This document shows, piece after piece, positions 9,879-59,276 of a stretch of 64,000 nucleotides of DNA. Position 1 is the first letter of the stretch. Every line of letters starts with the position of its first letter. The stretch comes from Podarcis pityusensis (Eukaryota), in assembly GCA_964106645.2 (NCBI GenBank), contig OZ067043.1; one strand, given 5' to 3'. The notes beneath the pieces were generated by a model, which saw nothing but the letters and a program-made list of their open reading frames with translations, searched no databases and was not told the origin of the DNA. Both the position numbers and the translations under genes were made by a program.

Positions 9879-9895
9879 TATTGAATGGCTTAGCA

Positions 9896-10031
9896 CAGGC
9901 ATAGGCAAACTCAGCCCTCCAGATGTTTTGGGACTACAATTCCCATCATCCCTGACCACTGGTCCTGTTAGCTAGGGATCATGGGAGTTGTAGTCCAATA
10001 ACACCTGGAGGGCCAAGTTTGCCTATGCCTG
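9896..10031. mobile_element. Palindromic hAT MITE with perfect 8-bp TSD
   Basis: TIR CAGGCATAGGCAAACT / AGTTTGCCTATGCCTG; TSD GCTTAGCA at 9888-9895 and 10032-10039; internal GGACTACAATTCCCAT / ATGGGAGTTGTAGTCC palindrome. Confidence 0.95.
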
Positions 10032-10119
10032 GCTTAGCATATATTATAACCCCCAGGGGTTGTTGGACTAGAATTCCTTCAGCTACAGCCAGAAGACCAA
10101 TAGGGATGACAGAAGCTGG

Positions 10120-29056: not shown

Positions 29057-29160
29057 GGTGGAGTCAACTAACTTCTACTCAGAGTAGACCCATTGAGATA
29101 AATGACCATGACTTAACCTAAGTGGGGTCTACGCTGAGTAAAAGTTAGTTGAATACAGCC
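29057..29160. mobile_element. Short palindromic MITE
   Basis: TCAACTAACTTCTACTCAGAGTAGACCC ... GGGTCTACGCTGAGTAAAAGTTAGTTGA, near-perfect inverted arms. Confidence 0.85.
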
Positions 29161-29929: not shown

Positions 29930-30300
29930 GCTCTATGAGCAGGAATCGGTTCCAATTAATCCCCTCTCAGCTTGGCCTGCCCGCTTCATTACCTCCCCTT
30001 GATGAGAACCATCAGTGGGGCCTGTATGATTTTGCTAATTAGCCTCACTTCGTTTATCATTTCCATTTTCTCTCAGCGACGCACGGCTTGCTGGGCGACA
30101 GCTTCATCTCCTGCTGAAACAATGCGGCCCCTTCTGTGCCTGTCTCACTTAGCGCTGTCACTGCAGCCATTATGAAATTGGGGTTTCATTTACACACTAA
30201 TTAAACATTACAGCTTGTTCACAATTACAACACGGGGATGAGGAGGTAACTAATTACTTAAGAAATGAGCTAACATTTATCTCCAATTCTCTTCTTTATC
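29930..30300. promoter_or_regulatory. Putative conserved non-coding element
   Basis: CAATTAATCC, GCTAATTAGC palindrome, CTAATTAAAC, AACTAATTAC, AACAATG (Sox); retained CpGs. Confidence 0.55.
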
Positions 30301-30589
30301 CATCTCCCCTCCCCACTCCCTCTGCAATCAAGATTAGATTGTTGTTCAACAGAGATGGTGCTGGAGGCCCTTGGTAGCCTCAACCCATGCAGCCCCCCTT
30401 CTGAGTACACTTTGCGGGGTTCGGTCGTAGGACAATAAATCAGTCCCTAATTGCTTCTAAGGTTGCAGGGGACCACCAGAGTCACTAACACACCAGACAA
30501 AGGCTGAGGAAGCAAGCACCTTGGCACTCGCCCCAAGTATTGTTAGGGAGGGCGGTTGAGTTGATGCATGTGTCTCCCCCACCCCACCT

Positions 30590-30910
30590 CAGGTAATAAT
30601 AAGAAAAATACACGGGGACCAGCATTTTTCATCTGGGGAAAACAGACTAATTCATTGCTAATTTACCTCTGAAAAAGGCCTCTGACCCCTATTCTTAATC
30701 ACTGCTTTGCATCAGGCGCTGCTCTAGGTGTTTGTGATTATGCCCTGTCCTTCATTAAGCCAGTAGCCCAGCCCCACAATATTTACTGACTTGCTCCCCT
30801 CCAAGTGGTCACAGTCTCGGGCTCAAATATGTGTTTGTATTTGTGCTGTTATAATCCAGAACCAGGCAGTACAAGCAATGAGGAAAATCAATGGTTCTTT
30901 TTATTTCCCC
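30590..30910. promoter_or_regulatory. Putative conserved non-coding element
   Basis: TE-free with multiple TAAT sites (CTAATT x2, TTAATCA, GATTAT, CATTAA). Confidence 0.4.
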
Positions 30911-31642
30911 AGGGAGGCGTAGACGGGGAGTTAACTGCCACAACAGTTTGGGCTGGAGCCAACACCACGGTTCCCTTCTGATTTGGTCATTCCTGTCACA
31001 TAGGGAGCCAAGCTAGTCTTCTTGGAATGTTGCAACAGAGACTAAGCTGTTTGTCAAACAGTATTCACCCCCTTCCTACCCACAAAAAAATTACCTTACT
31101 GAGTAAAGCTAAGCTTTTGGTTTAACGTGCCTACTTACCTGTTTAAAATTAGTTTGCTTGTAACACTTTTTAAAAAAACACTGAAGTACTTTAATGAAGT
31201 TTGGTGTGCATGTTCTAGATTTCAAGTTTTAAAACCAGCTCAGCCTCCATACCCATCCTCAAAGTGAGAGAGGGACATGCAAAATATTATGCTATTTGCC
31301 TAAAAGGCAGAGACATCAGGAAGAATGTTGGTGTGCACGTTAGAACATTTTTTTAAAAAGGGATGCAGATTACAAAATATCTTGGTACATGATTATTTAA
31401 AGTAAGAACTCTAGAATGTTGTCATTTACTAATAATATTTGTGCTTTATTCGTATTATTTGTATTGCACAAATGTTCTGAAATGGAGCAATTAATACTTA
31501 GAAGGACAGCTATTACAAAAAGGACTCTTGGCTCAAAATCAGAACAAACTGCCAAAATGTGTGCTTATTGGTTTCATGCATCTCCCACTCTTCCTTTAGA
31601 ACTAATTAGTTAAGAAATGAGCTAACTTTTATATCAAATTCT

Positions 31643-31813
31643 GCTCCCCTTTGTTTTACCATGTTTGTCTCACAACCAACCCAGTGCGGTAGGCTATACT
31701 GAAAGATAGTGACTGTTCAAGGCTCTGCCAGTAAGCCATGTGGAGCTTTTCTGAGTGGAGATTTAAACCTAAGTTTCCCACATACAAATCAATATTCTAG
31801 CCACACCACCACA
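31643..31813 (-). mobile_element. Degenerate Squam2/MIR-like SINE
   Basis: CTCACAACCAACCC..GCGGTAGGCT..CTGA body, reverse B-box GAGATTTAAACCT, reverse head CCACACCACCACA. Confidence 0.65.
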
Positions 31814-32604
31814 AATGTTATTATACACTCTGTTTACAGAGAAAAACAATTGTAGATGCACCATTCCTTCAAAAGCCAGGGATCCTAAGGGCTAGGGCAA
31901 TATTGCAGGAAGGGTTGGATGGGCCAGGCCCAGAATAAAACCTTTTCCTTGAGATGGGTTTCCAGTCAGGCTATCAGAGCCGTTGCCAGCATTTATATAT
32001 CCAAATAGGTGCAGGCATGACTGTGGTGCAATATGAGAGGCCAAGAAGGGAAGATGGCCCAGGGGTGGGGGTGGAGAAGGGGCACAGATGCAGCTAACTG
32101 GCTGGGTAGGCATGATGTCTGTCTATGTTCTCAACTACAGGGGTTGAGATGGACCTTGCACACACTCTGATGTGTTCAACTCAGTGACGGCCAACTCATC
32201 TTGAAGATACATTTTCTTCAGGGAGGAATTAACATTTACAAATGAGACCTATTAGAGTAAATAAAGGCGATTGTCACTTGGCTCAGGAGGCAATGGAGAC
32301 CATAGGCTTAGATACAAATCTGATTAGGGAGATGAGCCATTTGGAGGGGGAGGCAGCCTTTGGCATTGATTGGGTGTGCATGTGTATGTGTGTTATTTAT
32401 TTATTGACTTGGACACAGGAGCATTGTGCATTTAGCCTAGGCAAAGCAGCAGAATGGCAGGGGACATGCTTATGAGGCAGATTTGGAATGGACTAGGCAG
32501 GTTGGTGAGGAATATTACCACAATTATCAGGTCAAAATAATCTGGACATGGGGGCACGAAACAGAATGACACCGCTGAGACCAACAGTATACCTTCCTTT
32601 GCAA

Positions 32605-32883
32605 GGGTTGCGGGTGACGTCGTGGTCTAAACCACTGAGCCTCTGGAGCTTGCTGATCAGAAGGTCAGCGGTTTGAATCTGTGTGACTGGGTGAGCTCCT
32701 GTTGCTCCATCCCAGCTTCTGTCAACCTAGCAGTTTGAAAACACACCAGTGCAAGTAGATAAATAGGTATCACTTCGTCAGCAAGGTGCCGGCTCCCTCG
32801 GCCTAAAAGCAAGATGAGCGCCACACCCCAAAGTCGCCTTTGACTGGACTTAACTGTACGGGGTCCTATACCTTTTTACCTTA
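32605..32883 (+). mobile_element. Sauria SINE (Squam1) with internal deletion
   Basis: GCGGGTGACGTCGTGGTCTAAACCACTGAGCCTC..GCTGATCAGAAGGTCAGCGGTTTGAATC head, GTGCAAGTAGATAAATAGGTA core, GAGCGCCACACCCC..GGGGTCC..(TTTACC) tail. Confidence 0.92.
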
Positions 32884-33849
32884 CATTACTTTTAAGCTAG
32901 CATACAAAAAAAAAATCTGTTACTGAGTTGAGTGGTCTGATTAGAATGCAATAATGCCCTCATATAACATGTCATGCTGGGGTAAAAGACCATAAGCTCC
33001 AACAGATTTGATGGCAAAACCAGCAAGAAAGGAAAGAGGAGAGGAAAGACAAATTAGGATTACCAAACTAAAGCACCAAATGCTGTTGCCTACAAACCCA
33101 ACTGAAGAAGAAAAATGCCACCATACCTGAAAATGCTTCTTAACTGTTTTGGTAACCTGAAGAGGGTCTTTCCTAGTAAAGTACCAGAACAGTAGGGAGG
33201 CTGACCTGGAGCCAGTTCCAAACAAACTGAAATTGGGGGTGAGGTGCTACAACTTTTAATCCACGTTTCCCAGAAAGAAAGTCTGATTTATGCAAATAGA
33301 AATGTGGAGCTTCTTGAAAGAGAACCAGTACGTGACAAACCAATCTCGTGAAGTAACTTGCTGCCTGTTTTTCTAGTGATACTCACCACATCATCACAAA
33401 ACCACAAAGAAAGAAGATATGCACAAGGCCTGGTGAAACTGGAGTGGCAGAAGATTTCACACAGCTTGCCACACACAAGCATCACCCAGGTTCACTGCAG
33501 CCAGTGTTGCTTGTGTTAACTTTAAAAAATAAATGCCTGGACATTATGAAGGTCCCCAATTGTTCCTTGGCTACATAATCCTGGAGTGTACCATGGACAG
33601 GGGTAGTTGTCTCACAACCAACCCAGTGCGGTAGGCTATACTGAAAGATAGTGACTGTTCAAGGCTCTGCCAGTAAAGCGCTCTCACGAGAGAGCGCTTT
33701 AGGAATGCGTAAAATATATGGGCCTAGAAATAGTTAAAGAATGAACAGGGATGGGGCTCTGTGGACTTTAATAATAGTAACTCCTCATTCTCATAGTTTT
33801 TATCCTTCCTGTCTTTGGCCTACAAAAAAATTCTCAGCTAAACTACTGA

Positions 33850-34080
33850 CACCGGCTGGGAGCTTAGAACTCCCAAATCAAACAGGGCCCTTGATTCTCC
33901 AGCACATAATTGTGCTGCCCTTTCACCCCCACCTTCAATCAGTGCCGTTTAACTATCTCGTTTAGCCTACGCGACCCACCCCTCTGCTAACTAGCAGCCA
34001 TATTCTTCTCATTAGGACAGAGGCTGCTCTTGCTTTACAGACAAGTAGAGACAAATCTGTAATGTCTCTCTCAACACAGT
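33850..34080. promoter_or_regulatory. Putative conserved non-coding element (twin of 37600-37730)
   Basis: TE-free; shares collinear motifs with 37607-37727 (see findings). Confidence 0.45.
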
Positions 34081-35559
34081 TATATATAGAAAGGGTTTGA
34101 CGGGGGGGGGGGGTCAGGCAATCATGGTCTCCCACAAAACAGCCCAGCTTGCATCTGTCTCAGCCTGAATAATAAACCAGAAAAATTACTGTATTTACCT
34201 TGCTCTTATTCCAGTAAATAAACATCAGGAAAGGGGGGGGTGGTGGTGGTAGGGAGGTTCACTCACCACAGAGTATATCTTTATACAAAATGGATGCCCT
34301 TACTGTGGGACAAAATGTTTCCAAGGTAAAGAGACAAGCACTCTCACAAAGCCTTGGGTAGTCTTTGTTCATCAGGAGCACCTTTCTCCAGAACAAGAAA
34401 AATTACGACTTTTTGTTCAAGAGCAAACTGTACCTCTCTGCAGTAGTGCAGCTAGCAATGTTGGGGGAAGTTGGGTTAATTATTCATTCTGTGTACTCAT
34501 CCTCTGCCTGAGAGGTTCACTTTTAAGCTTCTCCGTCTTATGGGTCACTCAGAATCCAGAAAAACCCAAGTATCACTATGCCAAACAAAATATCCCCAAT
34601 CCTTCTATAGTCTATTCCACCAAAGAAGCATCCATATGCTATTATGTAAACACACCTATTCTCTTATGTACCATTCCATTTGCTCTGTATTTGCTAATTG
34701 TAGCTGTCAACGATTGGGCATAGAAAGCAGAAAGCTTCTCTTCAGCACAGTGACCAGGACCTCTGACATGACAAATCAGCATCACCCAAGCCAAAGTATA
34801 TCAACTGTTATGCTCCTGCTGTTCCAGAAATTTTTGGAAGCCCAGCATGAAAAATTGAGAATGGAATACACCAATCTTCTGCAGACTGTATCTCAGTAAC
34901 CATTCATTGGCCAATATCTATTACTTAGTTTTCAGGCCACAGGAAATGCAGGGCTTCCAGGTACCATCCAAACACCAGGCTTGAGATTTTACATTGTTGA
35001 AAGACAGAACCTCAAGTATAGCTTTGAGAGCTATTGAAATGAAATTATAGTAAGACAATGTTCAGCCTTTCCCATCCTATACTGACACCATGTTAAGGTA
35101 CTTAACTGTATAAATAGATTTTCAGAAATACATCAGTGGAAGAACTGGTTCATTTCCTTACTCCAATACATGTAGGTGTGTTTCTTTGGTAGAGACCTAT
35201 CAGTAAATAATATAATCTATCAATAGAAATAAAACCAGCAGCTGCCCCAAAGTGATGTAAGTTATATGAGACAAAGATGTAGATCAGTTAATTAGGTTTT
35301 CCTCCTTTTCTGATGATGAGAACCCCAGCTGGGGGGGGGGGGGGAACCTTACTTCTTCCTAAAAGCTGGTGGCCTACCACAGAACATGTCTTTTGGGTGG
35401 TGACACCTATTCTTTGAACTCCACCTCTTAACACAGTGCAGCAGACTCGAGAACTTGCCCCTTTAAAACCTTCCTTTACAGGCCTGCTTTTTATTACAAG
35501 GGCTTGGGGTTTTTGTTTTTTTCATGCCTACTTCAAGTTTACCATGTTGTTCTTTTTAT

Positions 35560-35710
35560 TAAGAACACAAGAAGAGCTTGCTGGATCAGGCCAAGGGCCC
35601 ATCTAGTCTGCCAACCTGTGCTCACAGTGGCCAACCAGATACCTATTGGAAGCCCACTTGCTCAGCAGCTGCAGTTTCCAGCAACTGGTAATTCAGAAAT
35701 ATACTGCTTC
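35560..35710 (-). mobile_element. CR1 3' UTR fragment
   Basis: AAGAACACAAGAAGAGCTTGCTGGATCAGGCCAAGGGCCCATCTAGTC...CACAGTGGCCAACCAGAT...TTTCCAGCAACTGGTA. Confidence 0.85.
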
Positions 35711-35924
35711 CAAATTCTGTACTTTTTCTGCATTGTTAAAATTCTCTGAAGTATTAATTGTACCTCATTGTAGGGTTTATTATTATTTTTTTAAAAAAAA
35801 CATGTTGCAAAATAACAAGTGAAAAGGTTGGGCTTTTTCTTAAATTGGGGCAGCAACTTGTTGCAGAAATGCATGGTTTTGGTCACATTACTAATATTCT
35901 ATACTGATATATACCAGAAGCCAT

Positions 35925-36085
35925 GTATTTGAGCTTGAAAGTTGGACAATCTTTCCCAGGCCTGCAAAAGAGCTCTGTGATGTTTTAAAGCTTGTCTCTT
36001 CTTCCAAGAAATGGTAGTCCAATAAGAGATTCTACTTGACCCACCTTGTCAGTCTCTTGCTTGCATCCTGGGACTAATACGGCTG
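35925..36085 (+). mobile_element. Penelope-like element terminal fragment
   Basis: CTG.AAAAGAGCTCTGTG..AAAGCTTGTCTCT..GTCCAATAAGAGAT..AC..ACCCACCTTGTC..ATCCTGGGACTAATACGGCT resembles the sauropsid Penelope terminal repeat (from recall). Confidence 0.65.
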
Positions 36086-37599
36086 TGATCAGCTATTAAA
36101 AACATTCCAAGTTCATTATCTTGCAAAGACCAGCCAGGACATGGGGCAGTGAGGCTTAAACCAATTAACAGAACACTTCAGTTTTTAAGCAAGAAGAAGC
36201 TGTGAGTCAGGTCTTCAAGAGAGGGATGTCAATGCAACAGGAAGAAACATGTCACGGGTCACAGCAACTCTGAACAGAGGGGCCTGTTAGATCTTAACGA
36301 TGGTTGGGAAAAGCTGGTCAACTCAGGTCAGATAGTGCTGTTGCCAAGTCTGGGCTCTGCCACAGAATGCTTCCAAAGAAAGAAAACTTGAAGTTTTCAA
36401 GAGCAATATAGAAGTCAGCCAGATCTCCTAGAAAACGGGAATCCTGCAAGCAGCACAGTGCGAAAGTGAATGATCAAGCTCCTCATATACTGGCAAAAAT
36501 CTCATGTAGTCCCTAAACAAAATACCTGGTGAACGTATGCAGGAATTTCACCTCTGATGTTAGTGGGGGGGGGGGGAATCAAACAGATGAAAATAACAGA
36601 AATGGACAGAATAGGACTAAACAAAAAAAAAACTGGACTTAGTTTTAACTAGGCACACTTAGAACAGCTCTTTCTGTTAGGCTGACAGAAATAAATACAT
36701 AAATGGATGGTTAAAGAGATTATTTTGTCCTGACCATGAACACTTAAGAAGAAAATGCTCAACATGAAAGGGCCTCTTTCAGAAGCAAATGGTGTCAAAG
36801 GAAAAAAACTTATTCTAATTATATAATTAATATTATCATACCACCCAGCTTCGTATCTTGCTTCTGAGTGAAGTTACATAGAACCAGAAATCAAAGGCAA
36901 GGGAGGGCCTAGTAGGTATGCAGAACAAAAATAGGATGTGTTATGAATTCCAAAGACGAATTCCAATTTGAGAAGTATTTGGCATCTCTAATTATAAAAA
37001 AATCTCTGAGCCCAGTTTTTAAACTGCTCTCCTTTTCTCATCTCAAGCCAGGTAAGACAAGAGGAGAAGCTGGTAGTTGTTCTGGGCTTCAAAAATTCCA
37101 ATAGATGAATGATTGAAAATTCAGTAATACACACTCAATCAAAACACTCATAGGTAAACCCTGAAAGAGATAAAACATCACGGCAGAGACAATCAAGGGT
37201 GATCAATTTTGAATGAAACAATTTTTTGGCCTTAAAATCCAGAACATTTTGTGACGACATCCACCTGTCTCCAGTTTGAAAGTCCTGATAACTAGTTCCA
37301 AACAGAGCCAACTAAACTTATGCCCATTTAGCACAGTGGCTACGGTAAGTCAACATCCCATTATTAGCTGTCCATTAGTCAATTGGCTTTAGGTGGGAGA
37401 ACTATGTTTAAAAGATCACGCTATACCTCACACATGCTGGGTAGCAAGACACCCCTTACTGTCCCCCTGTCCAAAGGGAAACTTCTTTAAAGGCCTATTT
37501 CAATCCTTGCCAACCCTTTTTTGCTAGAGGAAAAGGGGAGGGATAGTAGGAAGTTAAAGAGAATTGTCTTGCTACTCAAAGCCTTTAACAACTATTTTT

Positions 37600-38400
37600 A
37601 ATATCAGGCTGAGGAGCTGGATTTTGAAATGAAACAGCCAGTTCCCCTTTGATGCAGGAACTACAGATCTTGAAACAAGGTCCAATCCCTCCTCCTTCAC
37701 TAACTAACAGCCATATTTCTCTCATTAAAAGGCAATCTGACTGTATTTCCAAACTTCTTAACAAGGCGATCACCGTAATTTGAGGTTTCTATTATCCCTG
37801 TCCTATTTCAGTTGGATCGAGAAGCAGTGTGCTCTTTGGGGGCTGGGGGGGGTGCAGTTGCCTCTGTTCACCACCCTCTCAAACTGCTGCCAGTGATAAT
37901 GATGACTTGTGAATATTGATTAAACAAGACTACCGAGAGGGGGATGTTGGCTTTTTTTTGTTCTGGGTGGAAGCAGATAATAAGAAATAAAATATAAGCC
38001 AAATCAAAATGAAGTTTGTTTATCTCCCATCTAGAGTTTGGTCTTATACCTCCTGGAGAATACAAATTAATCTGATGCACCCTTTCTCCTTCCTATCACT
38101 TCCAATCTCCCATCACCCTGTCCCCTTCCCAAACGCACAGAGCCAGAGCTCCAAAACACCTCCCTCTTTGGATCGTTCTCTGCCCGCCCAGCACCCTCAC
38201 TCCTCTGAGCCAGCTCTGCCAGATGGATGCAATTTGCATAATATCACCAGCAGAGGCTGCAGGATCAACAGGGGTCAGGCTCTGACATCTCCAGCACAGT
38301 CTATCTCCGAGTGCTAATTTGGACTGCATTGATCTCTCTTTCTGATTTCTTTGTCATTTATGTCTGCAGCAGTTTGACAGGAGATATGGAGACAGGCAAG
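37600..38400. promoter_or_regulatory. Putative conserved non-coding element cluster
   Basis: CCTTTGAT (TCF), GCCATATT (YY1-like), TGATTAAAC, octamer ATTTGCAT at 38232-38239, TGACAG; TE-free. Confidence 0.5.
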
Positions 38401-39213
38401 GTGGGGGGGAGAGAGGCAAGTGGGGGGAAGCAAGGAGAGAAACAAAGATTGTAGTTACAGATGTCTTTAAGGAAAGAAAAAGATTAAGCCAAGGACTCCG
38501 CTGAGGGTCGAAGCTCAGAGACATCCTAATTACCTTGTTCTTAGGGATTCTTGTACAGACTTAGAGGGGGGTCTTGTCATGGAACTTGCAGGAAAGGAAA
38601 CTTGTTAAATTGCAATGGAGTGCCTCCAGTTGTCTGCTATCCACACACCCCCATAGCCCACCCCCATGCCACACCTCTCAGTGGTTTCTTATTAGGTAAA
38701 TGCCGGGCTGCTAAAAGCCAGAATCATCCACCAGCACATCCTCACCTCCATACCTCTCCAGAATGTCTCATTAAAGACAAAAACAAGGCCGCTCCAAAAT
38801 GCAGCCAGGTGCCAGCTCAAAAAGCTGGCAATGAGCAATCTCCCTGCCACACACCCACAGTTTGGAATGTAATGGGGAAAGTCCAGCCCCTCTCCCCAGC
38901 ACCATCAGTGCCCAGCCACAATGCAGGATGCTTTCTGCTTTGATTATGTTTTCACGTTGTTTTATGCATTTAATATTCAACTTTAATGCCAACCAACTTG
39001 AGGGCCTTTGATAGACAGAAAAGATGTGGGAGGGGCCAAGCATGCTATAAATACTCTCCTACTTTAAGCAAAACTCTGTTAGATACACCTATTCAAAACA
39101 TTCCATTTACACTCATTTTTATGCACTCTGCACGATCTTTTGCCTGCCCATTTCCCAAAGCATCAAGATTCAACATGTTGGTAGCCAGCCAGCATTTGAA
39201 GAGCATATCTCCT

Positions 39214-39741
39214 TTTTTAAAAAAAATTAATATTTATTGCATTTTAAAGGGTTACAAAAAGAGTTTAAAAACAACATATTTAAGAAATACAAAACATCAC
39301 ATCACGATAATTATCAAAAAAAAAAAGAAACAAGAAAAAAAAGAAGAAAAGAAAAAAGAAAAAATACAATAAATCTTCCCATAACTTATCTTTCATTTGC
39401 TTATTTCCTTGGCCTCCTCACACCTCCCTTTTTTGTATTCTAGTTCAATTAGCTATTTCAGCAAATCCTTTCCATCTTTTCCAGTTTTTGTCCTCTATTC
39501 TATCCTAATATAATGTAACTTTACTTTCCCTCCTTCACCATTTAGCAATCTATTTTTCCTTAATCCTTTATAGCATTTCTGCTAAAACCACATTATTTCA
39601 TTCCAACATCCTTCTAACATTCCTTAATTTTACAATGTTTCTGTAAATAAACTTTAAATTTCTTCCAATCTTCTTCCACCAACTCTTCTCCCTGGTCTCG
39701 GATTCTGCCAGTCATTTCCGCCAATTCCATGTAGTCCATCA
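39214..39741 (-). mobile_element. 5'-truncated L1 LINE with 17-bp TSD
   Basis: Minus strand encodes MDYMELAEMTGRIRDQGEELVEEDWKKFKVYLQKHCKIKEC* (lizard L1 ORF2 C-terminus), then 3' UTR, AATAAA and a short A tail; TSD TGAAGAGCATATCTCCT at 39197-39213 and 39742-39758. Confidence 0.9.
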
Positions 39742-40879
39742 TGAAGAGCATATCTCCTCTTCCCCAAGTCCCCTGTCTCTCCCACACAGAAGCCTTGGGA
39801 GAGGAATTCAGTCTCTCACCACATACTAGGCTTGAACCCTTTCAGAAACAGCACTGGGAAATGTTTCTATCCACTTGAATAAGTCTCCAGATCATGGTGC
39901 AAGCAAACTAAATCCCTTTACCTCTCTTTCCCCCAAGCTCTAAAGAAGATTGAAGAGGGAAGGGATCATTCTAGCATCTTGCACAGGATTCACTTATGAG
40001 TGTCTCCCAGACCAGCATCAGCTATGGAGTCTGCACAACCTGCTTCCTGATTTGGATGAAGAGCTATTTTAGGAGGAGGAGGAGAAATATTAAAAATGAG
40101 TTTTTCCAAAGTCCCATGCTCTTTATGTGCATGTGTGAAGCTGTACAAAACAGCTTCACAAACTCTGTTCCTAGCCTTTTCTAGTCCTCACCTCAGTCCT
40201 CAACTTCAGGGAAGGCAGGTACAGGATATGTGTTTGATGTGTTGCAGATCCAGCTTGTGAAAATCCAGACACAGGCTAAGGATGACCCTCTCCTAACACT
40301 AGTCAGAGCCTGAGGTCCAGACATTCAGTGACATGAGTGAGCACATTTAGACAAGGTTGTTCCATGCCTTCACCAAAATCCACCGTTTAATCCAGCTAAC
40401 TGCTGGGGGGGGGAGTTTCTTCTAAAAGGAGAAGCACTTGAATATGCATGTGTTTGTGTGGTTTAAGCAACATACACATGAATGAGTAAGTTTCTCTGCA
40501 GCATTCCTCCCCAATAGTTTTGAAGAAAGAAGCTGCACTAATGACTGCATGCAGCAAAAAACAAACAAACCCGTATGGTCTGGACTGTATCACTAGCAAT
40601 CAAGCTAAAATGGCCACTGCAGCTCACTTGGCAGGGACTATCATAAGATAGTCTACCCAAAATATTATGGGTCTACCTTTGCCATTGCTGGGTGTGGAAA
40701 GTATGTTGCAGTGAATAGCAGAATGACATAGAAAGACAAAAAGTCAACACAAACACCCAATCATATTCTATCATCCCACCCCCACCCCCGGCAACCCAGT
40801 TTCTTTGTTAACCATAGGAAACAGCTGAAAGGCCTTGAGTCCTCCATTGTAACATGCATAGGAATAGAGCAGCAGTGAT

Positions 40880-41540
40880 AAGAACATGCCCCCTGCCGCT
40901 GCCAGGAAAAAAGAAGCGCTGAATCTTTGCTAAAAAGGGCTGAACGCTGGCAAGAGTGTTCTGTCACTTTTGCGCACAGTAATCCACTGTGCCACTGAGT
41001 CCCATCAGAGGGATTTTGAAAACTTAAATGACTGAAAGCAAAAGAGCACCAGCTCAAGGTTCCCAGCCAGCCCAGACATCCTAATTAGCTTTACACACAC
41101 TCCCACTCGGAGGGGAGAGAGCACACACACAAAAAGGACTGTCACTTTGCTTTTTTCTCTTTCTAAAAGCGTGTCTGCGCTTACTGGCTTTCCCACTGTG
41201 ACACCTCTCACAGTAGTTAATTAGAATCATGTCACCACGTTAATGCGCTCTGACTGGACGCTGACAGACATTCGGCCTGTATCCTGCCCAAACCCCCTCC
41301 TCCCAGGCCAACAGTACCTACGCAAAGCACCTCTCTGCTTCCAAAAACCTCTCCTCACATCCTGGGCAGAAAGGGCCTTGTCTCGTCCACCCGCCTGCCA
41401 GCCCATACTCTCTCCTTGCCAGAAATATCTGCCATATTGCCTCACTCACGGAGCATCCGCTTCACCTGTTTTGAGCTTCCTGACCTTTAGCAGCACTAAT
41501 TCAAAATGACACTGCTCATTTGATGACATTTCTGATGATT
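40880..41540. promoter_or_regulatory. Putative conserved non-coding element (core twin of 45310-45363)
   Basis: CTAATTAG, GTTAATTAG, repeated TGTCA/TGACAG, retained CpGs; TE-free. Confidence 0.55.
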
Positions 41541-42654
41541 TTTATTTTAGTCTCTTTTAATTATTTAACTCTGGAGTCTTTGGCCCTATCCCTTAGGCTG
41601 TGAGACAGTTGGCCCCCTACCATAAATCTGGTCTAGGGCCACACCCCACTCCTGCCCATTCTCTGTAAGTAAGGGGCACCACAGTGAATCAAACGTAGAG
41701 CAAGATGTTCACAACAGACTGATGTGATGTAGTTTGAGAAACCTTAAAACTGAGAACTGGGCCATATCAGTCGCAAGATCTCCCGCTTATGTCAGAAAAC
41801 CATTGCTTGGAAAGCTATCAAGGGAACAGAATTTAGAAAGGCACTTTCTTTTTAAATACAATCAGATTCTGAAGAATCTGAGCAGCTACCAACTTCATCA
41901 TGGCCATGCACACTTCAAGACTGAGCTGCATCTAACAAAGTTCTTCTATTCATTTAAGGACTTCTGCTTGCACAATAGAACTTCCTCTCTCTCTCCTCAC
42001 CTCATGTACCAATCTGCTCTCAAGTTTTCCCCGAACCACCAGGGCAAATTTGAGGAGTGGGGGGCATGCGGGGAAAAGAGAGGGAGGGGAAGTTCCTAGC
42101 ATGAACAGGACAATTTCACTGGATTCAACCATCGAAGAGGATTTTGCTACAGTTTGTCTGGAGCTGCTACCAGGTAACTTATCCATAGAAGCACATGGCA
42201 CACAGGTCTTCAGGCATGCTAAAATTAGTATGTTTTCAGTGCCTTGGTTCTCTCTACCTTGAAGTCAAACAGTATGAAGGAAAGATATCACATTTTTCAA
42301 TTCAATTCAATTCAAAATGCTTTTTTTGGCTATTAGAAAAACTTTGAAATATTTATATCTAAAATTATCAAGGCACACTAAGCACAAAGAAACAAACTAC
42401 TTAGGGCAACAGAATATATTCCAATTCAAATTTTTCCACAGTATCCACATTCACTGTTTGATACCCAAGACAAGTATTAATGAGAAGAGTATATACCCTG
42501 AAATGCAGAGAGGCCAAGAGAGTGCACAGAAACAAGAAAGAACATGCACAGTAAATAAAGTCCAAAGAGACTAAAACAGTGGATGAAGTGAAGCCAGGGC
42601 TCCCTTGCTGAGTGGTATGGAGTTGGTTGTGTGCTGACTGAATCTGTTAACAAA

Positions 42655-43560
42655 TGAATATGCTGTCTCCTAGGTGAGCAGATCCAGGATGTGATGAACA
42701 AGTTGTCAAGTCTTATCAAGTTCACCGATCATTATCCTTTCTTGCTTTTCCCCAAGGGAATGAATTACACCAGAGACAACTATGAACGTATCACATTCGA
42801 CTACAAAACTCTGAGGGGGGAGGTGAAGGACCTTGGGTCTCAGGTGATGTCCTTGTCAATTCTTCCTGTAAAACAGGAATGGGGAATCTCCAACCCACCA
42901 AGCCTCTCCATGTGGCTCCTGACTCTCTCCCCAGGATATGTCCCCTTTCCCCTCACTGACTCACTGCAGTATGTCTCTCAGGAACCACAAGCGCTGAAAA
43001 TCCTGTAGATAAAAGTGCAGACCATTTTCTTCCCCTTGCGCATTGCTGCAATGTGTCTTTAAGCTGTGGTAACAGAAAATATACAAGGGAAGTCCACCTT
43101 CCTGGGCAGAATGTGTCCTTCATTGTGAAAAACATGCTTATGATTTGGCCTTCTGGGATGTTGTGCTCCTATGAGCTTCCCTAACAGTTTGGCCATTGTG
43201 GGGACAGCATAATAGACTATACAGGCCTTTGGTCTGGTCCAACAGGGCTGTTCTTATGCTCCACTAATCACATATTCCTCTTTTGGCTCCACTCCTTCCC
43301 TATTTTAGGTCTGGCCTGATTGCTCGTGTAGCACAGCCCCTGGGAAGGAATTGGTTCTTGGGCTAAAAAAATATTATTTTGGCTGCAAAAGGCAGATGAC
43401 AGAAAGAGTGGGGGGGGGGATGAATACATCAGGTGAATAACTAGCAATGCAAATGCTGTTGAGAAGAAAGGTTGGTTTTTAGGGCCACCAGCTTAATTTT
43501 CCTCAGTAAAGGACAACTGGAAAGTAGCAGGTGAACCTGATCAGGAAGGTTTTAAACTGA
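42655..43560 (+). pseudogene. Degenerate CR1 ORF1 (SGNH esterase-like domain), interrupted
   Basis: 42661-42880 translates to CCLLGEQIQDVMNKLSSLIKFTDHYPFLLF...DYKTLRGEVKDLGSQVMSLSILPV (CR1 ORF1 CCLPGA..DYYPFLL..GAQVVFSSILPV); 43531-43560 gives VNLIRKVLN*, the CR1 ORF1 C-terminus. Confidence 0.85.
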
Positions 43561-43762
43561 AGCCTGAAGTTAAGTACCCCATCCTGGTACCACTACTGAT
43601 GAAGGGACGGCTGCAAATCTTCAATATAAAGTTAAGCATTAGAGAAAGAGATTTAGATATTATAGGAGAAACTGCAGGGGGAGATGGCCAATGTGGGTGT
43701 ATAGCAAAACACACAATAAAACAGCAGGAGACACATTGTAGCAGATTATTTAAGGTTTTTTA

Positions 43763-44180
43763 TGTCTATACACTACTGCACACAGCAGTAGTAGGAAATA
43801 AACAAGATGAGCTTGAACTGCTTGTAAAGCAAGGGAACTACGACAATAGGTATTAATGGGACTTAGTGGGATGGCTCCCATGACTGAGATGTAGCAACTG
43901 AAAGATACAGCTTGTTAAAAGAGGACTGACACAACCAAAAGGGAGGGGGGAGCAGCAGTATGTGTCTGCACCTGCACAGAAAAGAAAGAAAGTGAACAGA
44001 GTGGGTCTATGGGGATTATATGGGTAGAATGAATTGGGAAATTAGCAAAAATAATACAGTGATGAAGTCTGCTACAGACTCCACACCAATGTGATGAGTA
44101 ACACATTACAGATGTTTCAGGAAAGGAGGAATTAGTAGTAATGGGGACCTACCTTGGTATCTGCTGTGGGCAAACTCCGC
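43763..44180 (+). pseudogene. Degenerate CR1 ORF2 endonuclease domain
   Basis: Frameshifted motifs CLYT.A.S, GNKQDELELLVKQGNYD, WDGSHD, GGG.AVCV, VCYR, LVVMG. Confidence 0.88.
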
Positions 44181-44544
44181 TGTTTATTTATTAATTACCA
44201 TTTACACACTGCATGATTGGGGGGGGGGCACCCCAAAGCAGTTTACAAACAGATAAAGCAACAAAACAGAAAATTCACAACCATACCTTAAAACATACAA
44301 AAATTAAAATACTAAAACAGATTTAATTACTTCAACTTTCTAAACATATGGGCGGGCTTGTATAAACAAGAATGTTTATACCAAAAAGAATATGGTGAAG
44401 GCACCTGCTTGATCTCAATAGGCAGGGAGTTCCGAAGTGCAGCTGTTGCCAAACTAAATGATAAGAGTTCTTACAAATGCGGAAGAGGCATTATGTGGTA
44501 GCTGCAGTAGTGCCAATTCCACTGATCAAAGCAGTTGAGTGGAG
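44181..44544 (-). mobile_element. Old L2 3' fragment inserted antisense in the CR1
   Basis: TTTATTTATT tail, CCCCAAAGCAGTTTACA, GAAGGCACCTGCTTGATCTCAATAGGCAGGGAGTTCC (reverse of L2 xNSLP..IRQ.PS). Confidence 0.75.
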
Positions 44545-44873
44545 ATTGTGAGGAGGCATAATAGCAATCTTCAAATATCTAATGGGATGTCACATGTAAC
44601 AAGCTTCTTTTCTCCTGCTCCAGAGGCTAGGACCCAAACTAATGGCTTCAAGTTACAATAAAGGAGATTCTGACTAAACATTAGGAATAACTTTCAGACA
44701 GTAAGAGCTGTTTGGCAGTGGAATGGACACCTATGAATGGTAGTGGGCTCTCCTTCCTTGGAGGTTTCTCAGCAGAGGTTGGATGGCCATCTGTCATGGA
44801 TGATCTAGTTGAGATCATTGCAGGGGTTGGACTAGATGACCCTCAAGGTACCTTACAACTGTACAATCTGTGA
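44545..44873 (+). mobile_element. CR1 ORF2 C-terminus and 3' UTR
   Basis: IAIFKYLMGCH..APEARTQTNGFKLQ..RF.LNIRNNF.TVRAV.QWN..VVGSPSLEV..QRLDGHLS, then GGGGTTGGACTAGATGACCCTC terminus. Confidence 0.9.
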
Positions 44874-45279
44874 GCAGCTCAACAATGAAACTAATTAATC
44901 ATTAAGATCTTCAAGCAGAGGTTGGACTGCAATCTGTTGGGGATGGTTTAAGCTCAGGATTTTCAGAATCAAGGAGGGCATTGGACTAAATGCACTAAGA
45001 AACTAGATTTCTAAGAGGTTGTTCTGGACTACCAAAGGGCAGCCCAATGTACTAGCTTCCAGAACAAAGAACATTGCATGACAAGATATGTCATTCCTAC
45101 AGTAAACAGCCCCAGCTTGCTGGCACACACAGCAAGTGCATGAACACACCCACACAGGCACAATCATACCTGTCCTTTTACATTAGACATGAAAGCCTGC
45201 CTGTGTCTCTCCAAACACAAACTCTATATACAGAATGAGGAGTTTGTAAAGATAAGAGGCTGCACCATGGCAGCTCCCC

Positions 45280-45570
45280 ATGGGGCAGGCGGGTGGCCAG
45301 CTTGGTGGGAGTTAATTAGAATCTTGTCACTAAGTGAATGCGCCCTGCCTGGACTATGACAGATGCTCCCCTCTGACACTGGGGGCCAGGAGACAATCCA
45401 CATCAAGCTACTGCAGGGTGACCCTTTTAACACAAAGAGTAAACTCACTGCACAGCAAGTTGAAGCTCATTAAAACTGTCTACTCTGTGAGCATCCCATT
45501 AACCTCCCTGTTAAAAACACGCAATCCCTCTTCTTCTTCTGCAGGCCTAATTAATGCTCAGGATCAGGAA
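45280..45570. promoter_or_regulatory. Putative conserved non-coding element (core twin of 41215-41268)
   Basis: GTTAATTAG, TGTCA, TGACAG, CTCATTAA, CTAATTAATG; 46/54 identity to 41215-41268. Confidence 0.55.
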
Positions 45571-48500: not shown

Positions 48501-49429
48501 ACACACTTGAATAGAAAAATGGATTCTAAAATCAGGGGCCAAGTGAGGGGTGGTTTGGCATGACCTCAGGAAGGACCCTACCATGATGATCTGGCAAAGC
48601 CCCACTATGGGGGAAGGAAGACAAAGGCATCATGTTCACCGTTGCCACTCAAATGCAGCAGCAAGTGTCAAGTGGCTTAGAAACATATATAGAGGTAATG
48701 GATCTGGATGCTAGACTGACAAAAGAGAAACGATATCAAAGTGGAGCATGCTTATTTCTCTACTACCAGCTCCTTTGGGATCCAGCATCCTTTTGTATTC
48801 CAGAGGTAGTGGCAGCCCTAACCTATGTGCTCAAGTTCTTGCCACACCAAAGACAGTGATAAGCTGGTTTCCACAGAAAAGAGAGCCATACATCCTTGGG
48901 AACTGCAGATGAGCCTGCCACTATACACTATTCCACAAACAGAGAAAAATACACCTGGACTGGAGTGAGAGAAGGAAGTCATGTTACTGACCTATCCCAC
49001 TGTGAGGCCTTCCTATGTGCTGTAGGTTCAGGCCTTTGTTCATGTCTAAGAGTCCATTCTTTGGCCAGCTCCCCATGGCAAAGCTGTATGCCTGCAAAAG
49101 AAAGAGGAAAAAGACATTTTAGATAATTGTACAACAAGCGGATGGCTCAGTATCACAAGGCCAGACCCTACTGAAGCATTGTAAAAAGTTGCATAATACC
49201 TTTAGGCCCTCTCTTGCTGATATTTGACAATATGATCTGCCCAGTGCTTTTACTTTGGGCTTTCCATCTCCACATAATTCTGCAAATACAAATTCTTACT
49301 CTATTGTCTCAAGCTTTCCTTCTCTCTCGCAACTTAAATCTGTTTTAGTGCAGATATTGTTGACTTGCTGTCTTAGTTTATTCCAGGTCCCACAACACAA
49401 AATGCCAAGTTCTCCACATTTTCTGCAAA

Positions 49430-50188: not shown

Positions 50189-50325
50189 CAGCCTTTCTCA
50201 ACCTGATGCCCTCCAAATGTCATGGACTGCAACTCCCACCAGCCCCAGCAAGCATGACCAATGGTCAGGGATTATGGGAGCTGCAGTCCAGTATATCTGA
50301 AGGGCACCAGGCTGAGGAAACTTTG
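50189..50325. mobile_element. Older palindromic hAT MITE
   Basis: CAGCCTTTCTCAACCTGATGCCCTCCA..GGACTGCAACTCCCA ... TGGGAGCTGCAGTCC..GAAGGGCACCAGGCTGAGGAAA. Confidence 0.85.
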
Positions 50326-55780: not shown

Positions 55781-56348
55781 TGGAAAGGGCTTCACAGCGG
55801 CTGCCACTGGGGCTTCCCAGACCATCTAAGGGGCAAGACAGATGAAAGGGGGAGATGTAAAAAGAAAGTGCTCTCTCCGGGTACACATCCCGTAACAGGA
55901 AATCCCATGTACTGTGAGTGGAGGAGAGACAGAGTCAAATAACCCAACTAACTATTCATCATCCAGGCTTCAGAAAAGGACTGGGGCAGGGAGGCACAGA
56001 CAGGAACAGGCACACCCCAGTACCTGTAGTTTGCTTAGTTTCACCCACAGCCATTAATAATGAAAGGAATTTCAGCTTTAGAGAAATAGATCTCACAATT
56101 TTACTGCAAATTTCAAAATATACTAGATTTCTATATATTTCCTGGAGCCCTATTTAAATTAATGCTACCAGCCCACAGTGATATCAGGAAAGGCTTAAAA
56201 ACATAAAAGGGAAAATAGTCTGATCTGCCCTCCACTTGCACATGGGAGTGGAGAAGTGCAAGCACAACACGGGTCTCCCTTGATTCTATTTTTATTGTCA
56301 TGTAAACACCTCCATTAATATTAGATTTTAACAGGACCTCTTTATTTT

Positions 56349-59276
56349 ATGAACTCATTTATTCATTGTACAATCCTATTAGGATGTAGCAGAGCCTCCA
56401 GGTTAACTAAGGGGATATTTTCCTGGGTACAATACTCTCATGACCTGAAAGTGTTGCTGTGCAATGCCAGGTCATTGATGAATAAAACCTCTGCCATCCA
56501 CGACCTGATTGTGGATGGAGGATTTGACCTGGCATGTGTGACAGAGACCTGGTTGGATGAAGCAGATGGGCCCGTCCTTGCCGCTGCTTGTCCACCAGGT
56601 TTCTCTTACGCACAGCAACCCAGGCCTTGTGGGCGGGGAGGGGGGGTTGCAGTGATTTTTAGGAAGTCATTAGTTTGCACCAGGCGTCCTATTGGAAAGA
56701 CCCAGTTCTCTGAGTGCATGTTCTGGAAGTTGGGCAATAGGGGCAGTACAGGATTCCTATTGGTGTACCGACCTCCCCGCTGCACCAAGGATTCCCTGCC
56801 CGAGCTGCTTCAGGTCGTGGCGGATGTCCTCCTGGAGACACCTAGTTTGGTTGTCCTAGGGGACTTTAACATCCATGCCGACACGACCTTACAAGGGGCC
56901 GCTCGGGACTTCGTGGAAAGCATGGCCTCCATGGGGCTGTCCCTGAATAAGTCTGGCCCAACTCATAGCCACGGGCATGCCTTAGACCTGGTGTTCACCT
57001 CTATGGATGTTGGTGATCTGACATTAAGTAAAAGCGAAACCAAAGAAGTGCCATGGTCAGATCACTTCCTGGTGCAACTGGACTTCTCCGTGACCCTTCC
57101 CCTCTGCAGGGAGGCGGGACCGATTCAGATGGTCCGCCCCCGCCACTTAATGGATCCAAATGGTTTCCAGAGAGTGGTAGGGGATGTTTTATCCCATGTT
57201 GATGGCCTTTCAGCTGATTCCCTGGTGGCCCGCTGGAATGTGGAGTTAACCAGGGCTATTGACTGTTTGGCTCCAAAGCGCCCTCTCCGATTGCATGGAG
57301 TCCGGACAGCCCCGTGGTTTTCCACGGATCTGAGGGCAATGAAACAATCGCTGAGACGGCTAGAGCGCCGGTGGCGGATAACCCATTCCGAATCTGACCG
57401 GACACGGGTTAGAGCTCAATGTCGAGCCTACCAAGTGGCGATAGCGACGGCGAAGAAGACTTTCTTCACCGCCTCTATTGCATCTGCGGAAAACAGCAGC
57501 AGGAGACTCTTTCAGGTGGTTCGCAATTTAGCGGAACCACCTGCTCCATCAGGGCCCAGTAGCGGCCACATGATCTCCTGCAATGACTTTGCAAAGTTTT
57601 TTGCAGATAAAGTCGCTCAGATTCGAGAAGAGGTAGACTCCACCGTGGGAGCAGGGCCGGGGCGGGAGAGTGCTAGAGTCCTGTCTAGTCAAGTTGTGTG
57701 GGATCAATTCCAATCTGTTACCCCCGAGGATGTGGACAGGCTGCTTGGACGAGTGAAACCAACCACTTGCCTCCTTGATCCTTGCCCATCCTGGCTTATA
57801 AAAGCTAGCCGGGAAGGACTGGGCGATGGGCTTCGTGGGGTGGTGAATGCTTCCCTCCGTGAGGGAGCCTTCCCAGACCCGCTGAAAGAGGCGGTTATTA
57901 AACCGCTTCTTAAAAAACCATCTTTAGATGCGGCCACGATAGCCAACTATCGCCCAGTCTCAAATCTTCCATTCTTGGGCAAGGTGATTGAGCGAGTGGT
58001 TGCTGAACAACTCCAGGCACGCCTGGAAGAAGCGGACCATTTGGATCCCTTCCAGTCGGGATTCAGGCCTCATCATGGGACTGAAACTGCCTTGGTCGCA
58101 CTGGTTGATGATCTCCGGCGGGCTAGGGACAAAGGTGAGAGCTGTTTCCTAGTTCTGCTGGATCTCTCAGCGGCGTTTGATACCATCGACCATAACATCC
58201 TTCTGGACCGTCTTGAGGGGTTGGGAGCTGGGGGCACTGTTATACAGTGGTTCCACTCCTTCCTCCTGGGCCGTGTTCAGAAAGTGGTGGTGGGGGATGA
58301 GTGTTCAGACCCCTGGGCCCTCACTTGTGGGGTGCCTCAGGGTTCTGTCCTCTCCCCCATGCTTTTCAACATCTACATGAAGCCGCTGGGAGAGATCATC
58401 AGGGGATTTGGGCTGGGTGTTCATCAGTATGCAGATGATACCCAGCTCTACCTCTCTTTCAAATCAGAACCAGTGAAGGCAGTGAAGGCCCTGTGTGAGT
58501 GCCTGGAGGCGGTTGGAGGTTGGATGGCGGCTAACAGATTGAGGTTGAATCCTGACAAGACAGAAGTACTGTTTTTGGGGGACAGGAGGCGGGCAGGTGT
58601 GGAGGATTCCCTGGTCCTGAATGGGGTAACTGTGCCCCTGAAGGACCAGGTGCGCAGCCTGGGAGTCATTTTGGACTCACAGCTGTCCATGGAGGCACAG
58701 GTCAAATCTGTGTCCAGGGCAGCTGTTTACCAGCTCCATCTGGTACGCAGGCTGAGACCCTATCTGCCTGCGGACTGCCTCGCCAGAGTGGTGCATGCTC
58801 TGGTTATCTCCCGCTTGGATTACTGCAATGTGCTCTACGTGGGGCTACCTTTGAAGGTGACCCGGAAACTACAACTAATCCAGAACGCGGCAGCTAGACT
58901 GGTGACTGGGAGCGGCCGCAGAGACCACATAACACCGGTCTTGAAAGACCTACATTGGCTCCCAGTACGTTTCCGAGCACAATTCAAAGTGTTGGTGCTG
59001 ACCTTTAAAGCCCTAAACGGCCTTGGTCCAGTATATCTGAAGGAGCGTCTCCTCCCCCATCGTTCTACCCGGACACTGAGGTCCAGCACTGAGGGCCTTC
59101 TGGCGGTTCCCTCACTGCGAGAAGCCAAGTTACAGGGAACCAGGCAGAGGGCCTTCTCGGTAGTGGCGCCTTCCCTGTGGAACACCCTCCCACCAGATGT
59201 CAAAGAGAACAACAACTACCAGGCTTTTAGAAGACATCTGAAGGCAGCCCTGTTTCGGGAAGCTTTTAATGTTTGA
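56349..59276 (+). CDS. L2-clade LINE ORF2: AP-endonuclease + reverse transcriptase (975 aa; true start uncertain)
   Basis: EN motifs NARSL, VTETWL, GGGVAVI, VYRPP, GDFNIH, LDLVF, SDH; RT motifs YRPVSNL, QSGFR, LDLSAAFDTIDH, GVPQGSVLSP, YADD; L2-typical LHWLPV and RAFSVVAPSLWN. Confidence 0.95.
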   Translation: MNSFIHCTILLGCSRASRLTKGIFSWVQYSHDLKVLLCNARSLMNKTSAIHDLIVDGGFDLACVTETWLDEADGPVLAAACPPGFSYAQQPRPCGRGGGVAVIFRKSLVCTRRPIGKTQFSECMFWKLGNRGSTGFLLVYRPPRCTKDSLPELLQVVADVLLETPSLVVLGDFNIHADTTLQGAARDFVESMASMGLSLNKSGPTHSHGHALDLVFTSMDVGDLTLSKSETKEVPWSDHFLVQLDFSVTLPLCREAGPIQMVRPRHLMDPNGFQRVVGDVLSHVDGLSADSLVARWNVELTRAIDCLAPKRPLRLHGVRTAPWFSTDLRAMKQSLRRLERRWRITHSESDRTRVRAQCRAYQVAIATAKKTFFTASIASAENSSRRLFQVVRNLAEPPAPSGPSSGHMISCNDFAKFFADKVAQIREEVDSTVGAGPGRESARVLSSQVVWDQFQSVTPEDVDRLLGRVKPTTCLLDPCPSWLIKASREGLGDGLRGVVNASLREGAFPDPLKEAVIKPLLKKPSLDAATIANYRPVSNLPFLGKVIERVVAEQLQARLEEADHLDPFQSGFRPHHGTETALVALVDDLRRARDKGESCFLVLLDLSAAFDTIDHNILLDRLEGLGAGGTVIQWFHSFLLGRVQKVVVGDECSDPWALTCGVPQGSVLSPMLFNIYMKPLGEIIRGFGLGVHQYADDTQLYLSFKSEPVKAVKALCECLEAVGGWMAANRLRLNPDKTEVLFLGDRRRAGVEDSLVLNGVTVPLKDQVRSLGVILDSQLSMEAQVKSVSRAAVYQLHLVRRLRPYLPADCLARVVHALVISRLDYCNVLYVGLPLKVTRKLQLIQNAAARLVTGSGRRDHITPVLKDLHWLPVRFRAQFKVLVLTFKALNGLGPVYLKERLLPHRSTRTLRSSTEGLLAVPSLREAKLQGTRQRAFSVVAPSLWNTLPPDVKENNNYQAFRRHLKAALFREAFNV

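Follow-up and report, generated by a model that had tools for sequence, protein, structure and literature searches.

Paired short sequences in the last ERI3 intron of Podarcis pityusensis as probable copies left by germ-line break repair

Introduction

How do short stretches of an intron come to stand twice within a few kilobases? The question is raised by a 64,000-nucleotide stretch of the lizard Podarcis pityusensis (assembly GCA_964106645.2, contig OZ067043.1; hereafter the window, C6:50,778,001-50,842,000 in a genome of 1.5 Gb), in which four pairs of similar sequences, here called A, B, C and D, all lie inside the ~64.6-kb last intron of ERI3, adjoining RNF220. A preliminary description of this DNA had taken them for serial local duplications of which selection retained the binding-site cores, that is, for the birth of a chain of shadow enhancers. 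We consider it highly probable instead that the pairs are short local copies from separate germ-line break repairs (repair-mediated duplication, or templated insertion) and that the copies are likely passengers. On each occasion, a stretch of 30-70 bases lying 1-4 kb from a germ-line chromosome break would have served as the template for its patch.

Identity, copy number and flanks of the pairs

All pair members lie on the plus strand, and twins do not overlap. A1 (30248..30290), a 43-bp single-copy core with a TAATTA word and the likely donor of A2 (31600..31642), matches it at 39 of 43 positions (30248/31600); pair B is identical over 70 of 70 (31665/33607); C1 (33987..34014) matches C2 (37700..37727) at 25 of 28; and D1 (41215..41268), a 54-bp core with TAATTA, matches D2 (45310..45363), which retains TAATTA and has single-copy flanks, at 46 of 54 (41215/45310). 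Donor and acceptor are separated, from A to D, by 1352, 1942, 3713 and 4095 bp on one chromosome, all within 5 kb. When local sequence was simulated 50 times under an order-3 Markov model, the best chance score had a median of 30 and a maximum of 38.3 bits; at 61-127 bits, pairs A, B and D lie well beyond this range. The weak 28-bp pair C, at 38.3 bits, equals that maximum, and genome searches from C1 and from C2 returned only themselves and not the twin; C is probably real, because weak pairs concentrate at short range (19 at 0.3-5 kb vs 3 at 5-20 kb). The match counts of the preliminary description were reproduced, although its pair C stands at the chance maximum, and its claim of real short-range duplications in one orientation and without overlap stands as well. 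The twins are not head-to-tail, being separated by 1.3-4.1 kb of unrelated DNA, and the collinear block reported upstream of C was not significant (p 0.145 vs shuffles, 0.22 vs other local DNA).

At the search sensitivity used, the A and D cores have two copies each genome-wide, and dispersed-family copies of A, C or D were not found elsewhere in the genome searches, which pass over common words, so that copy counts are lower bounds. The dispersed repeat family that the preliminary description had named as a possible refutation is thus not what A and D represent. Flank homology was absent in nine of ten flank tests over five pairs, in keeping with the little flank similarity described earlier; the tenth, on the right of C, owed its p of 0.03 in the comparison with shuffles to a G-run and gave 0.22 when set against other DNA of the locality. 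Residual flank homology is what a larger duplicated block, as in shadow-enhancer birth, would be expected to leave, and because these comparisons were null, the pairs look like short pasted copies and not like cores left over from larger duplications.

A polymorphic insertion at pair B

B1 (31665..31734, plus strand) is a 70-bp donor within a short interspersed element (SINE), and B2 (33609..33679, plus strand) is a recent, polymorphic 71-base insertion that replaces TTG and is composed of 68 bases matching 31667-31734 plus AGC. Four of 24 listed sequencing runs, each with a different species label and all produced by a single study, were examined over 32900-33840. B1 is present in all four. 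Each of the four, under four species labels, also yielded a contig of the empty site that joins 33608 to 33680 with TTG between them, and run X1, whose species label is the best match, yielded contigs across both B2 junctions as well and so carries both forms; X1 may be the assembly's own sample. Because these contigs span both junctions, B2 is not an assembly artefact. Contigs show presence and not absence, so the absence of B2 from the three other species labels is not proven by them.

By parsimony the shared empty site is the ancestral state, and B2 is a recent insertion, far younger than A and C. For B, then, the ancestral site lacked the 71 bases and had TTG, an old SINE supplied the copied DNA, and the two alleles still coexist. 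A third match to B, on C12, is collinear with B1 on both sides and with B2 over the copied piece alone; the next relative reaches 88% over 43 bp, and B is exact to B1 only. The converse arrangement, in which the 1.9 kb between B1 and B2 would be an insertion with a 70-bp target-site duplication, was rejected: relatives keep that DNA beside B1 and lack B2 only.

The junctions of B2 show a TT microhomology, the loss of TTG, the AGC filler and no poly(A) tail. At the right junction lies a hairpin with a perfect 12-bp stem (33674..33701, given without strand), found at a single place in the genome. Its inner 6-bp stem (33680-33695) is already in the empty site, and only the filled site has the 12-bp stem: 33674-33679 is the reverse complement of 33696-33701, and TAA within it is shared with the donor's end. 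The right broken end folds into a terminal 6-bp hairpin of -5.4 kcal/mol (z -1.6, not strong alone). From this arrangement, the outer 6 bp of the hairpin are likely the product of snap-back synthesis. A mini-transposon with TA duplications was considered for the hairpin and rejected, the structure being unique in the genome and half of it pre-existing in the empty site.

B2 may accordingly be pictured as the outcome of three steps. After the break, the right end would have folded back on the existing 6-bp hairpin and been extended by 6 bases; pairing of the new end to TAA(GC) in the donor, which lies 1.94 kb upstream, would then have allowed ~65 bases to be copied; and rejoining to the left end would have used the TT microhomology, with TTG lost. 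Such a route would combine snap-back synthesis-dependent end joining with proximal capture, and polymerase theta is its likely enzyme, as read from the junction pattern only. The preliminary description had looked to one recent event for a possible mechanism; B2 does show copying by repair, but what was copied is SINE DNA without a TAATTA site, which is not the birth of an enhancer.

The SINE host and the polarity of pair A

The source of B is an old MIR/Ther1-type SINE (31571..31815, minus strand; nhmmer 48.8 bits, E 4e-15), likely Squam3, which is collinear with a copy on C12 and is also the host of A2. Its body (31660-31815) is ~73% like the consensus of a SINE profile that was built here from other copies, with this locus left out. 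The family is high-copy (54 matches in 1.26 Mb), and the profile shows TAAA/CTT-type tails behind what we take to be a tRNA-like head. Copy number and tails resemble those of Squam3, to which the family is likely to belong, an assignment made by description. Squam3 is described, in the portion of the source drawn on here, as a high-copy, Ther1/MIR-derived squamate SINE of ~220-240 nt with TAAA/CTT-type tails (PMC7983390).

The part of the SINE that is missing beside B1 aligns directly left of A2 (31571-31596), and the body resumes to the right of A2, which suggests that A2 replaced some 20-30 bases inside the SINE. Against random 40-mers, an anchored test of the SINE tail left of A2 gave p 0.002-0.007, and the DNA left of four other cores scored lower; unanchored, the test gave p ~0.1. 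If A2 interrupts the SINE, as is likely, A1 is the donor and A2 is younger than the SINE. The A junctions, with microhomologies of 2 nt and 4 nt and a deletion of ~20-30 nt, are read from SINE copies only. TAATTA as a pre-existing microhomology that primed A2 was not supported, SINE copies lacking the word there.

A2 probably records an event like that of B2 but further back in time, and C and D may be assigned to repair-mediated duplication by analogy only. An interrupted repeat that would give their polarity was sought around the C and D cores and none was found; B2, C2 and D2 lie in DNA without a recognised repeat. Where polarity can be read, in B2 and likely in A2, only a short piece was ever copied, which speaks against duplication of a larger segment followed by selective retention of its core.

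Density and spacing of short pairs

The density of such pairs was assessed in a sample of 1.264 Mb, in which the window with its surroundings accounts for 664 kb and the genome sequences C1, C3 and C9 (not to be confused with pair C) for 200 kb apiece. To be kept, a pair had to reach 37 bits, be no longer than 200 bp and have its twins 0.3-20 kb apart; simple repeats were dropped, as were pairs of which more than 20% was overlapped by a repeat mask derived from the sample, a filter that also removed B. Twenty-two non-repeat short pairs remained, and 19 of them lay 0.3-5 kb apart (13 on the same strand, 6 on opposite strands), which points to proximal copying genome-wide. Two further same-strand pairs lie in the same intron, 11826-11867/12532-12573 (37/42, 706 bp apart) and 22368-22387/23232-23251 (20/20, 864 bp). 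Neither contains TAATTA, and the excess of pairs is therefore intron-wide.

The preliminary description had also stressed a chain, each of the first three pairs starting shortly after the previous one ends. The gap from A2 to B1 is indeed 23 bp, a link that would arise because A2 and B1 both involve one SINE; the gap from B2 to the C core is 311 bp, and the figure of 178 bp needs the unsupported upstream block. Under random placement, the chance of no overlap among the pairs is 0.05 and that of two gaps of at most 320 bp, given non-overlap, is 0.055. The links of the chain do not go back to a common history, since B2, polymorphic to this day, appeared much later than A and C.

Weighing the alternatives

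Several observations tell against passenger copies left by repair. The empty site was seen for B alone, the runs having been read around B2 only, and the interruption of the SINE by A2 rests on one test chosen post hoc, after the alignment had been seen. Of the 13 same-strand pairs, 5 fall in the window, which puts its rate per unmasked base at 10.7 times that found outside (P ~1e-4), and three pairs in 15 kb have P 2e-4 under a Poisson model, which would give ~20 such stretches per genome. Pairs A and D both begin with TAATTA, a word found in just 4.4% of local 45-mers. Ten of the 12 differences within A and D are transversions, vs 10 of 25 per-run differences classed by kind in three congener runs (15 of 25 being transitions); the contrast is a post hoc hand estimate (P ~0.003), and the count is 12 of 20 with C and the 11826 pair included. 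Finally, ultraconserved elements abound at the human ERI3-RNF220 locus, ERI3 and RNF220 being listed among the genes so enriched in the portion of the source used here (PMC13513235).

Some of these points lend strength to the reading that A2 and/or D2, once pasted by repair, were kept by selection as extra homeodomain-site modules, shadow or booster, for RNF220/ERI3, a possibility that we regard as unlikely. Neither twin of A or of D has lost TAATTA, and the local density of the word is raised (21 in 19 kb, ~2.6 times the sample), with several TAATTA-rich blocks in 28000-52000 of the window as candidate conserved enhancers. The ten-fold pair density and the position in a conserved vertebrate gene block fit as well, and among the human cases of Pace 2009, in the portion consulted, 45 of 824 acceptors carry PhastCons segments (PMC2671141). 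On the other side, the one event that is dated, B, duplicated SINE DNA that lacks the motif; a decayed SINE is the likely host of A2; and D2 lacks the second TTAAT word of D1. A constrained donor would halve the rate at which a pair diverges and bias old detectable pairs towards motif-rich DNA, so that constraint on the donor alone could over-represent motif-bearing pairs. Copies of 43-54 bp are, moreover, short for an autonomous enhancer.

A more specific form of this proposal strikes us as unlikely too: existing enhancers would supply homeodomain-site modules of 40-55 bp, which break repair copies to places a few kilobases off, and in this regulatory-block intron selection would have retained D2 and perhaps A2. 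If true, templated insertion would be a route to redundant enhancers, and within these 15 kb the still polymorphic B2, with its snap-back junction, would illustrate how the copying proceeds. The transversion excess in A and D departs from what neutral decay usually produces, and no explanation for it was found; neither it nor the TAATTA starts show the second copies to be functional. The cluster itself is real, but the stretch was chosen for being extreme. The preliminary description had allowed that other regions might show the same density of pairs, and this is not the case, the local density being ~10 times that of the genome sample. The local excess is likely due to a repeat-poor, slowly turning-over intron (10% repeat-masked vs 13-25% elsewhere in the sample) that keeps old copies recognisable, especially where the donor is constrained.

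Serial kilobase-scale tandem duplications, in which all but the binding-site cores decayed into a shadow-enhancer chain, are very improbable. That all pairs are on the same strand and do not overlap is what such a history would give, at the chance levels given above, and fly and mouse shadow-enhancer pairs often share short cores without flank homology, according to the part of the preprint considered here (PMC13345019). Against this, B2 is an insertion of the core alone, which refutes the proposal for B; A2 likely interrupts a SINE with no counterpart around A1; boundaries are sharp, with no residual flank homology; and the link from B to C is not historical. Dispersed-repeat fragments, chance matches or assembly error, to which the SINE origin of B, the chance-level score of C and the lower-bound character of the genome searches would lend themselves, are barely credible and refuted for A, B and D, given the two genome-wide copies of A and of D, the gap between the identical B twins and their next relative, and the X1 contigs across both B2 junctions, even if X1 may be the assembly's own sample.

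Comparison with known systems

Repair-mediated duplication thus remains the preferred reading, and its published counterpart is close. Statements on the works compared here refer to the portions drawn on. Pace, Sen, Batzer and Feschotte (Pace 2009) described 824 duplications in human, within 5 kb, that show microhomology, deletion and filler; one is polymorphic and 22 have predicted binding sites. The marks of such events are given there as proximity of the donor (within 5 kb), junctions with microhomology, deletion and filler, outgroups that have the empty site and, now and then, polymorphism (PMC2671141). The lizard pairs share the proximal donor and the short copy, and B adds junction microhomology with deletion and filler, an empty site and a polymorphic identical pair. 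A2 may add an acceptor that interrupts a transposon (by the post hoc test), and copying of binding sites is occasional in the human set. In contrast, the pipeline of that study needed inserts of at least 50 bp inside transposons (PMC2671141), and A and C are shorter; the portion used covers no lizard, whereas here several events lie in one intron and the filler of B is readable as snap-back.

The doublets of Thomas et al. 2004 reportedly fall within a limited size range, favour the same strand, are spaced ~1 kb apart and are defined by exact matching. The present pairs likewise consist of short sequences that recur close by, chiefly in one orientation, between unrelated flanks; unlike doublets, if these are indeed exact matches, only B is exact here. 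Pace 2009 equates repair-mediated duplications with these doublets (PMC2671141).

The B junction resembles snap-back synthesis-dependent microhomology-mediated end joining (SD-MMEJ; Khodaverdian 2017, PMC5728401) in that an inverted repeat at the end primes synthesis, a new microhomology is made and a longer inverted repeat results, at 33674-33701. It differs in that the new end there anneals across the break (PMC5728401), whereas here it apparently primed first on a donor 1.9 kb away. With the duplication of shadow enhancers (Ness, Kosztyo, Wunderlich 2026 preprint, PMC13345019) the pairs share short cores between nearby non-coding elements, and hit pairs without flank homology amount there to 62% in fly and 31.5% in mouse. 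Unlike here, the pairs of that study are known or predicted enhancers, and a repair route is not named in the portion considered (PMC13345019).

The ERI3 locus

ERI3 lies on the minus strand, and a search with short motifs, which we presume to be those of its exons, located five coding exons in the window and its 400-kb flanks. The penultimate coding exon (48993..49088, minus strand) was identified by phmmer against ERI3 in PDB (E 8e-17) and by its splice sites; Pfam gave no match for this 32-aa exon, and it was the PDB search that named it. The last intron runs from this exon leftwards beyond the left end of the window, to a last exon situated ~15.7 kb outside it. To the right of ERI3, domains of RNF220 are encoded, and to its left stand reading frames that we take to be KLF-like and DMAP1-like. 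No RNA record was listed for the region, a result that counts neither way. The order KLF-like, DMAP1-like, ERI3, RNF220 agrees with a conserved vertebrate block, as the portion of the source used describes it (PMC3820594).

Other features of the region were observed in passing. Between the KLF-like gene and ERI3, an intron-free frame with RRP4 N-terminal and S1 domains (L009:9072-9698, plus strand) is likely an EXOSC2 retrocopy. An element of 5.6 kb that contains long reading frames (L013:5162 to L014:1393) has direct terminal repeats of 595 bp with 99% identity and is a young long terminal repeat retroelement. Within an ERI3 intron, an unbroken 983-aa frame with endonuclease and reverse-transcriptase domains (window 56325-59276, plus strand) marks a young long interspersed element, presumably L2/CR1-like. 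A ~530-bp repeat fragment between 17-bp direct repeats (window 39197-39761) is an ordinary retrotransposon insertion with target-site duplication, and short palindromic elements at window positions 9888-10038, 29064-29152 and 50194-50319, at least one of them multi-copy in the sample, are likely miniature DNA transposons.

Conclusions

B is a well-resolved polymorphic event of a process that is itself a known kind of repair scar, and the local density of such scars is high. It offers a clean natural example, in a lizard, of a templated insertion that is still polymorphic and whose junctions allow the fold-back and the template switch to be read. For binding sites, a route of this kind was suggested by Pace 2009, and the literature searched gave no tested case. 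If A2 or D2 were conserved and active, break repair would be linked to the birth of redundant enhancers.

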